From: a virus
Lineage: Duplodnaviria > Heunggongvirae > Uroviricota > Caudoviricetes
DNA length: 38,591 nucleotides
Reading direction: 5' to 3' (one strand)
IMG/VR virus record: IMGVR_UViG_2541047697_000006
In this document: positions 2,518-31,267 of the stretch, piece after piece
Numbering within the stretch: the stretch's first letter is position 1
How the letters are laid out: each line of letters begins with the position of its first letter
Program-made: the position numbers and the translations under genes
The notes under the pieces: model-generated
Told to the model about the DNA's origin: nothing
Database searches by the model: none
What the model saw: the letters and a program-made list of their open reading frames with translations, nothing else

Positions 2518-5103
2518 CTACTCTATCTCTTTTGCTTTTTTAATTATCAATTCAAGCTCTGTTAAACGAGATTCAATACGTTCACACCTTCTTCGCTGGA
2601 ATGCAGCCTCCAACCACAAACATTCATCTGGACGCAATCCCCAACGCTCACCAGCATGTACAACCAGTTCCGTTTCACCAGTATCGTATTCTTCAAAGTA
2701 TTCGTGAACGATGTCTTCTCCTTCAGGGGATTTAGCTATAAATGACACCTTGCGCTGTGCCATTACAGGTTGGTACTCATCATCCCATTTATCATGACAT
2801 AGCAAGCCAAATCTTGTTCCATCTATCCCCTTTGCAAGAAACGCATCTCTTACCTGCTGTGCAATTGCTCCGAAATGCCAACGAGCAGTATCCGAACCTT
2901 TAGCCTTAATATCGGACAACCACTGGTAAACGATAATATTTACGTCACCCCATGCGTCAAGAATTGCATCCTGATCCACCTCCATGATTTCTGAAAGTTG
3001 CTCTACTGTCAGTGGCTTTGTTTTCAATGTCTGGTCTGAAGTATTTATTGCCCCATTAGTTGCATATACTTGCGTCCACCGTTTAGATGATGTCCCACAT
3101 GATGACGTATTATCTTTATTAGCACTTATATAGCCATTAACCTCCGCTGACTGACCGATATACGAATATGAAGATGTTGATAAGGGAGATTTAAATATCC
3201 ATTGAGCATTGGTAAAGTCATAAATACCGGTATCACCTTTTTCACTAACATGAAAAGTTACATTCCGTAACGTATTCTTTGCATCATAACGGGCGGCTTG
3301 TGTTGTTGCCCTCGAAACAGTGAATCCTTTGTCATCAAGGTTTGCCTGCTCTATGACTTCACCACCAGGCATAATTTTACCAAGGCTTAACAAACCAGAG
3401 TTAGTGACAATATCATGGGTTGAATCAATGATAATACCAGGCTGATTTCTTGATGTTGTTTTTACATGCATGACCTGTTGTGGCATTAATGTGTAAAATG
3501 TAGTTTCTCGCCCACTATCACCATCTGGTATGCCATTTGTATTCCCCATTACAAGGTCATACCCACCTGCAATCATACGGAAAAACATTGCTTCTGGTTC
3601 ATATGTAAGATTGCTAACATCTGGCGTTCCGGTATCATTTGGATCTGCTATTTCATAGGCTCTTCCTGCACCTGCCTGTATTTGCTGCACCCCAAGATAA
3701 ACACCATCAAGTGTGTACTGATGCAAATATTTTCTGGTTGAAGAATATGCAGATCCAGCCTGACAAAAATAAATAGCAGTACCGTCACACGCAACTGTTT
3801 GCATATCCCTCACAAAATCGGCAATTTCAAATTCAAAAGTTGCTTCATTACGATAATCGTAATTGTACGCCTGCGGGTTAATAAATTTGCTGGTATCAAA
3901 TACTTTTACATAATAGCGAATTTGATCTGGTGTTGATGGGCTCTCACCAGGGCCAACATAACGTTTTGCTGTAGTAATCAGCCATCGACTCATAGGGTCG
4001 GTGCATAAAACATTTACCTGATTCTCGTAACCATCTTCCCATATGAGAAAAAACTCTGGTTCAATTTCACCACCATCAGTAGGGGTGAATCTGGTGATAT
4101 ACTTTGCGCGATCCTCTCCTTTAGCTGTGCCAGCTAACCCCCATATCTGTAACTGGCCTCTTGTGTTACGAAAACCAACGCGCCCTATGGTTAAACCAAG
4201 ACATTGATGTCCTAATTCTCTACTACCTTTAGTCTCCCAAAGAGGAGTTAACTCTTCATTCCCAAACCAATTATAAGCAACAACTTTATTAACTTCGTCA
4301 CCAGAACTAACGCTGCCACTCACATTTACCAAGCAATAAAGAACACTGTCATAATAATCAAGAACAGCACCCTGTATGACAGTATTTTTAATTGTTGCCA
4401 GTCGCAACCCTGACTTAACATGATTAGGAGTAGAAGGTCTGAAACCTGTATACATCCCCTTTTTTATAGTTTGTATTCTTTTTTCAGTAAAATCAGCATC
4501 TGGCAGTAATCGATTCTCTGTGCGAAAATAGCCATTTATATACTTATTTCCATCAAAAACTTGATCTGTTATATATGTATTACCCCTTAGATCAACAATC
4601 CTTCCTGTGATTTGTTTTTCTAACTCTTGAAAAGATAATGTGTCATCGGTGATGCCATCACCTTTTGCTCCCCATCCGCGAGGGTCAGCGTCATCACGCC
4701 ACCGAGACATCTGCAATTCATGATATTTTTTAGCACCTTCCGGGTCTTCTAATTGTTGTCTTAATTGGTCAGGATCGTACTTAAGCACATTCGGAAAATA
4801 GAACTGCTGCGTACCATATGCATCGTAAACAGCCATAGAATGGCCTTGCACGGTAACGAATTTGGAAATCTGTCCGTTGTATACCGGGTATCCAGCAGCA
4901 TTGATAACGATTGGCTGTGGCACCTGAACATAAGTACCATCTTCTCGTTCCAGATATACTGGAATCTGGTTTTCTGGATTTACCGGATCTGTGTCAATCT
5001 TACCGATATAAATTTTTCCATTTGCTACGGTTTTAAAAGAACTAGCCATTGTGAAGAGTTGCGATGGCATACCTATCACAACATTTGGGGTTATATCAGG
5101 CAT
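2518..5103 (-). CDS. Tailspike protein: P22 gp9-type head-binding N-domain, beta-helix-like central domain, C-terminal intramolecular chaperone (peptidase S74-like) domain
   Basis: N-terminus MPDITPNVV...[21 protein letters not shown]...[13 protein letters not shown]...NVLKYDPDQ matches the P22 tailspike head-binding domain as recalled. [11 protein letters not shown] motif. C-terminus has NTSDQTLK followed by about 170 aa typical of auto-cleaving chaperone domains. Start chosen at internal ATG 5103 (AGGA upstream), not ORF-track start 5196. Confidence 0.85.
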
Positions 5104-5454
5104 ATTAGTCATCCTGTTTGAAGATTTAGATATTGAAGAAAACGGAATGACTGCAGACAACGATGCAATTGTTTTGAAAAATAACCTTCTATTCATTTAA
5201 AAACCATGCAACATGAACAAAACGATTATTTTACAATACTCAAGAATCTTGATCAACAGGCATATTATTTATGCGCTTAATGCGTCACTTACAAAAATAA
5301 AAACAAGTAATACCTTTATTCCTATCGTCCATGATTTTTATTTTCAAACATTATTAAATAACAATTCCTATTTATAATATCTGTCATTTAATTTTCTCCA
5401 AATACAAGGAATCGCCGCAGCATTGCCGCAGTGATGTATTATTAATCAAAAAGA

Positions 5455-5471
5455 TATGACCACCGTGGTCT
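5455..5471. promoter_or_regulatory. Candidate Mnt operator: 13-bp palindrome GACCAC-C-GTGGTC about 65 bp upstream of the mnt-like gene
   Basis: Perfect inverted repeat around a central base at 5457..5469, resembling the P22 O-mnt core (CCACGGTGG) as recalled. Confidence 0.4.
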
Positions 5472-5534
5472 TATTGAGGATGCAACCAACAGATAATAAG
5501 ATGCCGATCCACTCACAAAAGCGAGGCATCAAGA

Positions 5535-5693
5535 ATGGGAAGAGATGACCCGCAATTTAATCTGCGGATATCTTACGAATTAAAGGAAAAACTAAAACAG
5601 CGAGCCAAATCCAATGGCCGCTCTCTTAATTCAGAATTAGTTCAGATAGTGACTGATGCTGTATCAAAGCCATCCAAAATTTCAGGCTATTGA
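5535..5693 (+). CDS. mnt: Mnt-like ribbon-helix-helix repressor, interrupted by in-frame TGA at codon 53 (homology continues in frame to 5786)
   Basis: MGRDDPQFNLRISYELKEKLKQRAKSNGRSLNSELVQIVTDAVSKPSKISGY then TGA then DDAERIADEQSDLVKKMVFDTLKDLYKKPT; matches P22 Mnt (83 aa) as recalled, with Arg at the TGA position. Confidence 0.6.
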   Translation: MGRDDPQFNLRISYELKEKLKQRAKSNGRSLNSELVQIVTDAVSKPSKISGY

Positions 5694-5885
5694 GACGATG
5701 CGGAACGCATCGCTGATGAGCAGTCCGACCTTGTTAAGAAGATGGTGTTTGATACGCTGAAGGATTTGTACAAAAAACCCACCTGACGGTAGGTTAATTT
5801 TTGCATTTACCTGGGCCATATTGACTACTTATAAAATGAGATCAATATTTAATCGCCCAATAACGGGTGTATGTTGAGGTATATC

Positions 5886-6065
5886 ATGGCGAAAAAACCA
5901 GGTGAAAACACAGGAAAAAACGGCGGAATATACCAAGAAGTTGGCCCGCGCGGCGGTAAGAAAGACAATTTTGCCACCGTCAAGGACAACGAAAGGCTTC
6001 CACCAACAACAAAGCCAGGTCATGGCTGGGTATTAGATAAGCGAACTCCAGACAGCAAAAAGTAA
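5886..6065 (+). CDS. Small Gly/Lys-rich hydrophilic protein, unknown function
   Basis: ATG 5886 with GAGGT 6 nt upstream; 59 aa MAKKPGENTGKNGGIYQEVGPRGGKK...; followed by a hairpin terminator. Confidence 0.5.
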   Translation: MAKKPGENTGKNGGIYQEVGPRGGKKDNFATVKDNERLPPTTKPGHGWVLDKRTPDSKK

Positions 6066-6071
6066 TAATCA

Positions 6072-6094
6072 AGCCGGGTCACTCCGGCTTTTTG
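6072..6094 (+). terminator. Rho-independent terminator (stem AGCCGG/CCGGCT plus T-run)
   Basis: agccgg-gtcact-ccggct followed by ttttt, directly after the 5886..6065 stop. Confidence 0.6.
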
Positions 6095-6444
6095 ATATGT
6101 CGCTCGCAGAACTCAACAAGCCTGCTCATTAAGTAGCAGTAAGTCTCGTTGGCTCTTCCTGGTTCAACATCAACACCGACCCTTGAGCAGATATCGAATG
6201 CCATGTGAGCGCACTCATGGGCAATAGTAGATAGTTTGCCATTGAACACGCCTATCACATGCAAAACACCATTCTCGCTGCTCATTGTATGAGACGCTCC
6301 GTTGGCATCCGAGTCCTGCACGTCCACACCAAGTTTTTGATGCAGGCGTTGCCATTCTGGAAAGTCTCTACAAAACACAATTGTACCGCTCTCAAAGAGC
6401 GGAACGAGCATCTTTGGTACGTTTCCAATATTAACTTTTTTCAT
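6079..6444 (-). CDS. Small HEXXH-motif protein (putative Zn metallopeptidase, possibly ImmA/IrrE-like)
   Basis: 121 aa from ATG 6444 (AGGA upstream). Motif IAHECAHMAF with downstream E...ANETYCYLM. No confident family assignment. Confidence 0.45.
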   Translation of the reverse strand: MKKVNIGNVPKMLVPLFESGTIVFCRDFPEWQRLHQKLGVDVQDSDANGASHTMSSENGVLHVIGVFNGKLSTIAHECAHMAFDICSRVGVDVEPGRANETYCYLMSRLVEFCERHIKKPE

Positions 6445-6474
6445 GGTATCCTGCACAAAACTAAGGAGGTTGGT

Positions 6475-6864
6475 GTGAAGCAATTTCTTGCTGCTATGTT
6501 CTTATTCATATCTTTTGGGGCTACAGCAGAGTGCTGGGTCGTTGGAGATATGCGGGGAATAAGCTATTCAGAACGAAATAATTTCCATCCGGAAGAAGAT
6601 GGTTTTAGTGGAACATTCATCATTAAGACAAGCGGTGAAGATGCCAGCATCACATATTCTGGGACAGATGCGGGCGGCATGGCTTACAAAGCATTGTCTA
6701 AAAACTCCATCATAGGAATCGGCGCGAATGGCGAAACTCAACGCGTTATCGACTCATGGGTAATACATCCTACTGGAACAGTTTTAATGTCAAAAACCAT
6801 TTCCGGTTATGGAAATATGGATTCAACCAAAGCTTTTGTTGGAAAAGTAAAAAGAAAATGTTAG
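6475..6864 (+). CDS. Secreted/periplasmic protein, paralog of the cI-coupled gene at 30863..31267
   Basis: GTG start 5 nt after a strong AAGGAGG. Signal peptide MKQFLAAMFLFISFGATA, mature N-terminus ECWVV, C-terminal STKAFVGKV...C. Shares ECW / YSG / YKALS / SW.I / STK.FVG motifs with the 30863 protein. Confidence 0.55.
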   Translation: MKQFLAAMFLFISFGATAECWVVGDMRGISYSERNNFHPEEDGFSGTFIIKTSGEDASITYSGTDAGGMAYKALSKNSIIGIGANGETQRVIDSWVIHPTGTVLMSKTISGYGNMDSTKAFVGKVKRKC

Positions 6865-6888
6865 CGATTGAATCCAATTTCCCATACG

Positions 6889-8730
6889 TTACTGCTGTGT
6901 TGCCTCAGTAGCAAACAGCGGTCTGATGGCATTCGCAGCGTTATTTAGCGCTCTTTCATAGGCTGGTGTTCCTGCTTTGGTGTTTGCCAAACGAAGAAGC
7001 ATATTCCTTGCGGCTTTGGACTCATACAAACGCATCATTGCACCAAAGCCAGCCTCAAGCCCCATTGATACTCCAAGAGTCGCAGTTGCGCCAATCGTCC
7101 TTATCCTGTTGGCTTGTGATTGCCCCGTCTGAGTTACTACATTTGCGGTGTCTGACCTTGCTGTTTGCTGTAGAACTTCATGAAGAGCATCAAGCTCTTT
7201 CATGTGCTTTCCAGAAAAAATAGTGTTGTAAATTTCACCGCCTGACTGAGATTTAAGCTTATTAACTTCAGTGATGAACTTGGCTGGAGAGTCACCGGCC
7301 TTTTCCGCTATTTTGCTGACGTAAGCTGCACGCATAGCATCTTTCCCTTTATCATCCAATGCGCTCCAGATTCGTTTCACGTCAGATGGCTTTCTGCTTA
7401 ATACAACGGTATTTATAAGTTCAGGACTGGCTTCACTGCTTGCCTTGTTGAGCTTGTTAGCAATGTTTTTATTAAGCACCTTATTATAAACGTTTGCATA
7501 ATCGGAGTTTGCTTTAAGGTATTTTGCTGCGTCTGATGCACCGAGGTTTTTTGCAACTGCGTTACGAAGATCTTTTGACATTGCATTCTCTACCATATTG
7601 GTAGCTGCTTTTGCCTGGTTGGGGAAGACCATAGCATCTCCCTGAACATTGGATCTAAATGCTGTTCTGTGCTGACGCAAGAGATCAAACGTAACATCCA
7701 AATCAGTTGCAGGGTTTGCTAATTCTTCACGTAGGTTACGCAAGGATGTAAGCAGGCTTTGATTGGCAGACGTCCCAAGCCGTTCCTGTCTTGCGATCGC
7801 TGTATTCAGAGCATTCATGGTATTTGTGGTATCAACTGCGGCATTACCCATTTTATTGGTGACGTCATTGATAACAGCGCCAGCGGCATCCTTCCGTCCC
7901 CTTAACGTGGTGGTCAGAGATTTCACCACATCATCAGGGTTGTACTCACCAAAACGGTCAAAATAATTGCTTACCAGCTTACTACGCGTTGCATATTGCT
8001 CCGCTCGCTTTGAGCCTGTCCCGAGCAAAGCCCCCTCAGCATCCTGAGTAAGTCCGCGAGTGAAAGCATTTTTCGGCGGGATAACATCAGATGTCATTGG
8101 TGTCACGCCCATCGATTCTGATGTGGCAATTTTCTTCGCCACTTCTGGCGCAATATCACCTTTTATAGCCGTTATTCCACGCCCTATTCCCTTTGCTGCT
8201 GCGGAAAGAACACCCTGAGCGGCAAGGTTAACTCCGGCATTTTTAGCTGCATTTTGTGCGAAATCACCTTTCTGATTTGCGGCCTCTGCCAGTGATCCAA
8301 TAGCCATGCTTCCTGCCGTTCCAACTCCTGGAACTAAATACCCGCCAATTGTTTCTCCAGCTTGAGCGTAGGGGTCTGTCGGTCTGTCTACTGGACGATA
8401 GACATCATCCAATACTTTTGGCCCACCAAGCCCCTGACTGATTGCATTAATCAGACTTGCGCCACCCTGCAATACGTCAAATGGTATGTTTACCAGACCA
8501 CGACCAGCCTGTTCTGCAATTTGCCCTGCACTTTGACCACCAGTGAGCCAATCGCCAGCTTGTTGCATCAATGATGGTTCTTCCCGTGTTGGTGCATTAT
8601 TGTCCTGATTAACTGTTTTTTGCTGAACAGCCTGACCAGCAAAATACTCATCAATGGCGGTGCCAATATCTTCCGTGCTCGTACCATCAGGGAAGGTAAA
8701 TGTCTTACCGTTTGCAGTTACTTTCATCAT
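6889..8730 (-). CDS. Ejection (internal virion) protein, P22 gp16-like
   Basis: 613 aa; position and length match P22 gene 16; Ala/Gly-rich. Confidence 0.75.

Positions 8731-29914: not shown

Positions 29915-31267
<1,353 letters not shown>

Follow-up and report, generated by a model that had tools for sequence, protein, structure and literature searches.

HkcC of P22-like phages as a candidate minimal metallopeptidase of the zincin kind

Small HEXXH proteins of phages and the hkcC gene

Among the small HEXXH proteins carried by phages and mobile elements, the ImmA/IrrE-type peptidases (family M78; e.g., Sfi21 orf122 and MM1 ORF2) measure about 120 residues and place a Glu ligand on the helix that follows the motif; their genes are located beside a CI/XRE repressor gene and are co-transcribed with it (as in Sfi21 orf122-orf127). 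In the SprT-like proteins, by comparison, a His located shortly past HEXXH is taken as the third ligand. More generally, the minimal core of a zincin combines a sheet that has an edge strand with three helices: a backing helix, one that carries the active site and a 'glutamate helix'. Here we analysed hkcC, a short gene in a 38,591-nucleotide stretch of tailed-phage DNA (IMG/VR record IMGVR_UViG_2541047697_000006, Caudoviricetes; this whole stretch will henceforth be referred to as the window), whose product is like the M78 proteins in its size, its motif and the predicted placement of its Glu on the next helix, whereas its gene family is found in late operons rather than beside a repressor. 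A preliminary description of the window, made from the sequence alone, had proposed that HkcC is a metallopeptidase related to ImmA/IrrE and possibly a repressor-cleaving anti-repressor. The metallopeptidase idea has gained from our analysis, given the conserved HEXXH with its downstream Glu and a predicted fold compatible with a zincin; the specific link to M78 has not survived.

We found hkcC to be a real, selected protein-coding gene. The open reading frame (ORF) and its 121-aa product were confirmed by translation and by the call of the Prokaryotic Genome Annotation Pipeline (PGAP), which in RefSeq annotates an identical coding sequence (CDS; WP_000757526.1) in a 99.8%-identical E. coli prophage, and the start codon (ATG 6444) has AGGA in front of it. 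At the amino-acid level HkcC is 100% identical to HkcC of coliphage HK620 (annotated as 'unknown'), whose gene occupies the same place as in the window (i.e., the interval from injection gene 16 to the tailspike gene, where it converges on orf59a), and to an ORF of Salmonella phage P22 (BK000583 13861..14223). It and 59a were listed as the two P22 'ant moron' genes whose function is unknown (Villafane et al. 2008; PMC2629481). The gene is thus already known by name (since 2001) and by a PHROG number, while a fold or function assignment is absent from the literature that we searched and from Pfam, NCBIfam, PHROG and PADLOC; what is new here is the recognition of HkcC as a distinct family of minimal, putatively zincin-type proteins.

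A conserved HEXXH...E site and its predicted fold

HkcC matched phrog_1365 (function unknown) over residues 1-121 with E = 1.4e-39, and an exhaustive profile search returned 551 clusters (at 50% identity) with E <= 1e-3, or 152 with E <= 1e-10. The family appears to be restricted to phages and prophages. Nearly all of its members stand alone, with lengths of 110-130 aa, and a Pfam scan of ten longer members found no informative extra domain. To describe conservation we used a deep alignment (A3) of 96 diverse members, 23-73% identical to the window protein, all of which also fall in phrog_1365. Only five positions are invariant in this alignment (G49, H76, E77, H80 and E100), with a further two, P15 and Y104, conserved in at least 90% of members. 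The HEXXH motif noted in the preliminary description, namely H76-E77-C78-A79-H80, is likewise kept in 212 of the 219 family proteins collected, and most of the seven exceptions look truncated or disrupted, judging by their lengths and match tables. Given that 212 of 219 proteins carry the motif, and that H76, E77, H80 and E100 are invariant in the 96, we conclude that it is not a chance occurrence. The downstream E/AN segment also proved genuine, corresponding to A98-N99-E100; among the HEXXH-bearing homologs the Glu is found 20 residues past the second His in 129 proteins and 19 residues past it in 68.

Comparisons with homologs at 38-63% identity gave a nonsynonymous divergence (dN) of 0.30-0.67 while synonymous divergence (dS) was saturated, which argues for purifying selection on hkcC. 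A deaminase-type or Cys-based zinc site could be ruled out, as the cysteines concerned (C25, C78, C86 and C103) are invariant within the enterobacterial subclade only and not family-wide. We also noted an N-terminally truncated, 63-aa homolog in Moraxella caviae (locus L023, 4109-4300), which retains HEXXH and NET and is probably a decaying copy; two small convergent ORFs, resembling a putative toxin-antitoxin system, are found about 350 bp away.

Structure prediction, one of the checks that the preliminary description had named, yielded a confident model with a zincin-like layout: AlphaFold2 on the 96-sequence alignment reached a predicted local distance difference test (pLDDT) score of 93.6 and a predicted template modelling (pTM) score of 0.86, with all five models in agreement. 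This model superseded an earlier one, built from 19 close homologs, which was unstable (two of five models confident) and with which a Foldseek/PDB search gave no significant match. The predicted order of elements is strand 11-13, strand 21-25, helix 28-37, strand 49-56, strand 59-66, helix 71-88 (containing HEXXH) and helix 100-117 (beginning with E100). In structure comparisons the prediction scored 5.3 against oligopeptidase A (M3), 4.3-4.7 against collagenases (M9), 4.4 against CapP, 4.3 against the zincin-like 3e11 and 3.7 against an IrrE ortholog, with unrelated folds scoring about as high. Because the predicted order of elements matches the minimal gluzincin layout as generally known, we read the predicted fold as zincin-like, that is, as compatible with a zincin though short of proof of one. 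In sequence searches, phmmer aligned thermolysin and a neutral protease over the HEXXH...E stretch of HkcC with E = 0.1-0.7, and both single-sequence and profile searches of PDB sequences returned only sub-significant, HEXXH-centred matches (thermolysin, myroilysin and BMP1). We saw no signal peptide or membrane segment in HkcC when judging its sequence by eye. We consider it very probable that HkcC has a zincin-type metal site.

The reading that we favour, and to which as a whole we assign a probability of roughly 0.5, is that HkcC is a cytoplasmic accessory metallopeptidase which acts late in lytic growth and cleaves a specific host or phage protein. The hkcC product would then be a soluble minimal zincin of about 120 residues, in which a single metal ion, presumably zinc, is coordinated by H76, H80 and E100, and E77 acts as the general base that activates water; the strand starting at the invariant G49 probably aligns the peptide substrate, and Y104 may help to stabilise the transition state. 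The gene itself would be a non-essential, accessory one, outside the lysogeny switch. That HkcC binds metal, works as a peptidase and is expressed late is our inference, as is the kind of substrate. Our favoured guess for the substrate is a host stress or immunity protein, but any particular substrate class is a doubtful choice; counter-defence and host takeover are the leading candidate roles.

The locus, its mosaic surroundings and expression

Table 1. Features of the hkcC locus, with positions counted from the first nucleotide of the window.
Feature	Position	Strand	Evidence or remark
mnt pseudogene	5535..5786	+	In-frame TGA at 5691-5693; upstream of orf59a
orf59a	5886..6065	+	59-aa, Gly/Lys-rich, YjzC-family gene; phrog_3202 (E = 7e-31), weak PF14168 match
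Two-way terminator hairpin	6071..6090	both	GC-rich, common to orf59a and hkcC; terminator scan on both strands; equals t-mnt of P22-pbi
hkcC CDS	6079..6444	-	phrog_1365 member, 121 aa plus stop; translation, profile match, PGAP call
N99-E100 codons	6145..6150	-	E100 lies 20 residues past H80, at the start of a predicted helix; invariant in 96 members
HEXXH codons (H76-E77-C78-A79-H80)	6205..6219	-	Read from sequence; H76, E77 and H80 invariant in 96 members; in a predicted helix
PsieA-homologous stretch	6414..6444	+	PsieA of P22-pbi at 3220-3250 of locus L001 (offset 3194); within hkcC codons 1-10
Divergent gene of a 129-aa protein	6475..6864	+	Signal-peptide-like N-terminus; phrog_2651 (function unknown); in the sieA slot of P22

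The 1.5-kb region around hkcC (Table 1) shares 95-99% DNA identity with P22-like phages, and its alignment with P22-pbi (AF527608, the second P22 record, where the gene spans 2885-3250 of locus L001) is gap-free with 98.6% identity. The P22 ORF is intact. The gene order in P22 is 16, sieA, hkcC, orf59a, mnt, arc, ant and 9, meaning that P22 holds the identical ORF at the same place, between orf59a/t-mnt and sieA; hkcC had been described as lying where P22 has arc/ant, which is incorrect, as these two genes lie beyond mnt. In both BK000583 and AF527608 the hkcC stretch has no CDS and bears only the features 'sieA promoter' and 'mnt terminator'. P22 is among the best-studied phages, and yet hkcC is missing from its reference annotation.

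Downstream, orf59a ends 13 nt from the hkcC stop, and its homologs are labelled 'YjzC family' in UniRef, with distant matches carrying PF14168. The stem of the hairpin between the two genes encodes the conserved C-terminal K-K-P-E-stop of HkcC (its last four codons), so that this segment is at once coding sequence and a terminator for both directions; the hairpin scores on both strands, in agreement with the terminator that had been proposed to be common to the two genes. On the other side of hkcC, and by analogy with P22, the PsieA-like stretch would drive the divergent secreted-protein gene, in P22 sieA. The most plausible start of this gene is GTG 6475, which has an AAGGAGG Shine-Dalgarno sequence 5 nt upstream, while PGAP prefers ATG 6496; the two genes are divergent, as previously noted, but the gap of 31 bp given for them becomes 30 nt or 51 nt, respectively. 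The secreted protein has a 28%-identical paralog at 30869-31258 on the + strand (tblastn E = 2e-9). We rejected as a gene the 201-aa ORF at 6259..6864 (+), whose N-terminal part simply runs antisense to hkcC; this ORF is the same artefact as the over-long sieA (236 aa) drawn on the opposite strand in some P22-like records.

The mnt pseudogene upstream of orf59a is 73% identical to P22 Mnt over 84 residues, with the stop codon falling after codon 52, at the position of Arg53 in P22, and PGAP flags an 'internal stop' in mnt of the 99.8%-identical prophage (E. coli A3). A tblastn search of the window found arc, ant and sieA to be absent, as is sar; with arc, ant and sar gone, no antirepressor is left for Mnt to repress. 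As another departure from P22, a 340-bp stretch between the tailspike gene and mnt (5197-5534) is AT-rich and non-coding, and an Rfam scan of both strands from 5000 to 7000 found no RNA elements. The tailspike gene itself (2518-5196, -) encodes a P22-like N-terminal head-binding region followed by a different and longer body; its annotated ATG at 5196 extends the protein by about 30 residues relative to the P22-like start, and near its C-terminus the protein has an S-D-x-x-x-K motif ('NTSDQTLKT') reminiscent of the self-cleaving intramolecular chaperone domain that certain tailspikes and endosialidases carry.

Both in the window and in P22, hkcC is co-oriented with the late operon and the tailspike gene and is flanked on both sides by units of the opposite strand, namely mnt-orf59a and sieA or its replacement, which are expressed in lysogens of P22. 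In P22, late transcripts antiterminated by gp23 must traverse the hkcC region in order to reach gene 9. As these transcripts cross the region, we would expect hkcC to be part of a late transcript, and it is most likely transcribed by antiterminated, late read-through. A consensus scan, albeit a crude one, found no sigma-70-like promoter upstream of hkcC.

To look at the surroundings of the gene beyond the window, we examined 83 loci with hkcC at least 95% identical (mostly 99-100%). The divergent neighbour was sieA in 13 loci, the secreted protein in 12 and something else in 58 (small membrane proteins in the two of these that we inspected), whereas the convergent neighbour was orf59a in 72 loci and another gene in the remaining 11. 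hkcC is therefore the constant element of a mosaic region. Related loci were sought with a closer alignment (A2), as A3 lacks a conserved stretch. A diverged version of the two-gene arrangement, with HkcC at 46-63% and Orf59a at 64-80% identity, recurs in prophages that are P22-like in Morganella and Proteus and of siphovirus type in Klebsiella, Rosenbergiella and Xenorhabdus, as well as in a Pasteurellaceae genome. The convergent layout is the same throughout, the two genes lying about 13-17 nt apart (5 nt in Morganella). In prophages of the siphovirus type the pair sits between the tail genes and the tape-measure gene, and hkcC is again co-oriented with the late genes. The arrangement spans 5886-6444 in the window, 4001-4556 in locus L009 and 4001-4563 in locus L010, and was also seen in loci L015, L016, L017 and L106-L109.

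This recurrence invites the explanation that HkcC and Orf59a form a functional pair, akin to a toxin-antitoxin or protease-inhibitor system, in which Orf59a expressed from Pmnt in lysogens would be an inhibitor, antidote or substrate of HkcC, or in which convergent transcription would silence hkcC. The constancy of the convergent layout, the short gap, the common hairpin terminator (at least in the window and P22) and the persistence of the pair in the quite different surroundings of siphovirus prophages all fit this idea. However, each gene is also found alone: the 11 loci without orf59a have an essentially unchanged hkcC, a second clade of the family (the Orf-129 clade, see below) and the distant members examined have no orf59a in their flanks (checked with tblastn), and there are orf59a homologs with no HkcC within 2.5 kb. 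A convergent arrangement is moreover atypical of protein toxin-antitoxin pairs. We thus regard hkcC and orf59a as often forming a mobile two-gene cassette that occurs in unrelated phage backbones, the linkage being obligatory for neither gene, and a functional pairing as unlikely. We hold a similarly low expectation of the boldest form of our proposal, in which HkcC would found a phage-specific family of minimal zinc metalloproteases that act late, cut a host immunity or stress protein as a means of counter-defence and, in enterobacterial phages, are restrained in lysogens by orf59a.

The Orf-129 clade (ST64T Orf-129, phage L Orf129, epsilon34 gp70, ST104 ORF47 and many enterobacterial prophage genes) is 38-42% identical to HkcC; the four phage proteins named here (38-40% identical) score 136 bits against the family Hidden Markov Model (HMM) and have the same invariant residues. 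Unlike hkcC, which lies elsewhere, the genes of this clade always occupy the interval from the lysis cassette to the small terminase gene, point the same way as these and have no orf59a beside them; some P22-like phages hold both paralogs. In two Citrobacter prophages we noticed a gene for a Tad2-like protein (PF11195, an anti-Thoeris family) close upstream of the Orf-129-type paralog, immediately adjacent in one case (Citrobacter freundii, locus L004, 4660-4935) and one gene away in the other (locus L019, 3360-3692). This suggests that the lysis-terminase slot is an accessory or anti-defence hot spot. The family also extends to phCDa, an N4-like Pseudomonas phage (Schitoviridae; 68.7 bits), and weaker tblastn matches came from phages of Klebsiella (about 73 kb) and of Pseudomonas and Aeromonas (about 40-43 kb). 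N4-like phages are virulent and lack a repressor that a protease could cut.

The proposed role and the relation to known metallopeptidases

Since the gene is apparently dispensable and mobile, occupies accessory hot spots and is known from one virulent phage or more, hkcC is better explained by an auxiliary role than by a part in the lysis-lysogeny switch. Several observations nevertheless weigh against a late-acting accessory peptidase. No family of Pfam, NCBIfam or PADLOC reaches its threshold for the HkcC family; the window protein gave only noise against the same three collections (e.g., a lantibiotic model over the HECAH stretch), and no PADLOC-DB defence model matched HkcC, Orf59a or the secreted neighbour at E <= 10. 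A zincin of 120 aa has little besides its catalytic core, and might need a partner or bind metal without cleavage. The amino-acid identity of 99-100% among P22-like phages may be due in part to the promoter and terminator that lie within hkcC. Finally, our literature search found no functional, biochemical or expression study of any member of the HkcC family, and hkcC is not covered in a P22 deletion study or in the BTP1 transcriptome paper.

The embedded signals lead to a different explanation, which we consider quite unlikely, namely that HkcC has no peptidase role (being, e.g., a metal-binding adaptor, an inhibitor or another hydrolase) or is inert, the DNA being kept in P22-like phages mainly for PsieA and t-mnt. 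The promoter homolog and the terminator do lie within the ORF, hkcC stays 99-100% identical while both of its flanking genes are swapped, and models of alpha-ketoglutarate (aKG)-HExxH hydroxylases weakly matched 9 of the 96 members. Still, embedded signals fail to explain why the protein is conserved at 23-44% identity amid other neighbours, and neither they nor an inert product account for the invariance of four catalytic-type residues or for the low dN with saturated dS. The size of the family and its invariant HEXXH...E site make for a testable enzyme hypothesis with obvious point mutants (H76A, E77A and E100A). If the substrate were a host defence or stress protein, HkcC would be a phage protease that destroys a host immunity protein, of which our literature searches turned up none; otherwise 'zincin-like metallopeptidase, HkcC family' would still be a useful annotation.

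Two known families offer more specific alternatives. One is that HkcC is a DNA-associated protease of the SprT/Wss1/ArdC kind, which would remove proteins bound or cross-linked to phage DNA (e.g., restriction or repair proteins). SprT-like (PF10263) is indeed the Pfam family most often matched by the 96 members (27 of them, best E = 1e-4), but every one of these matches is below the gathering score of 25.6 bits, and the SprT profile check proposed in the preliminary description gave no match for the window protein itself. In HMM-HMM comparison with hhalign, the HkcC family aligned with a SprT-like reference at a probability of 23.5% over 71 columns, covering the sheet and the HEXXH helix, and pairing the conserved G49 strand of HkcC with the G..AG strand of SprT; this is the highest value among the families tested but still low, and the reference is very shallow, with only three sequences (E. 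coli YggI/SprT, which scores 82.5 bits to PF10263, and two phage SprT proteins). A control comparison of the M78 and SprT-like references gave 1.6%. The A3 profile found no SprT, Spartan, Wss1 or ArdC chain among PDB sequences at E <= 10, and the longer members have no DNA-binding domain or fusion. The presumed ligands differ as well: a His 13 residues past HEXXH is conserved in the SprT set, where the E. coli protein also carries a C-terminal zinc ribbon (Zn_ribbon_SprT match), whereas HkcC has neither a conserved downstream His nor a ribbon, but the invariant E100 at +20. On sequence grounds the N-terminal half of HkcC is possibly nearest to the SprT-like proteins, yet we find it very doubtful that HkcC acts as one of them.

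For M78 we used a reference alignment of seven sequences, Sfi21 orf122 (a positive control with 52.3 bits to PF06114) and six streptococcal phage homologs. The window protein had no match to Peptidase_M78 (PF06114, gathering score 22 bits) at E <= 10, and it was not one of the 25 Pfam families to which the 96 members gave the most matches at E <= 1, the best result seen being E = 0.099 for one long member scanned separately. The hhalign probability was 9.3% against the reference alignment and 20% against Sfi21 orf122 as a single sequence, where the match spanned 15 columns and covered the HEXXH motif only. In addition, the conserved Glu of the M78 set lies 16 residues past the second His, as opposed to 20 in HkcC. 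Membership of ImmA/IrrE is thus not borne out. An M78-type anti-repressor protease, cleaving a phage repressor (of C2/CI type, or Mnt) and so promoting induction, is highly improbable despite the HEXXH with its downstream Glu, a size near the 123 positions of the M78 domain and the location in the immI ('ant moron') region near mnt: there is no adjacent XRE/CI gene (the neighbours are orf59a and the secreted protein, and the nearest regulator, a ribbon-helix-helix (RHH) Mnt pseudogene, is two genes away), hkcC is intact while mnt is dead, the gene is co-oriented with the late genes and not with a lysogeny module, homologs occur in the N4-like phCDa and in late operons (the lysis-terminase interval) or tail gene clusters, and P22 induction is already explained by RecA-dependent cleavage of C2 and by Ant.

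A close parallel to the putative active site of HkcC comes from thermolysin, in which H146 and E166 have the same 20-residue spacing as H80 and E100. The surroundings of this Glu are different, with thermolysin having ExxxD where the HkcC family has E-[TP]-[YF]-x-Y, and HkcC, with only about 120 aa, has no extra substrate-binding subdomain. Judged by its sequence, HkcC is thus a separate and as yet uncurated family of the zincin kind, with a predicted third ligand of the gluzincin type.

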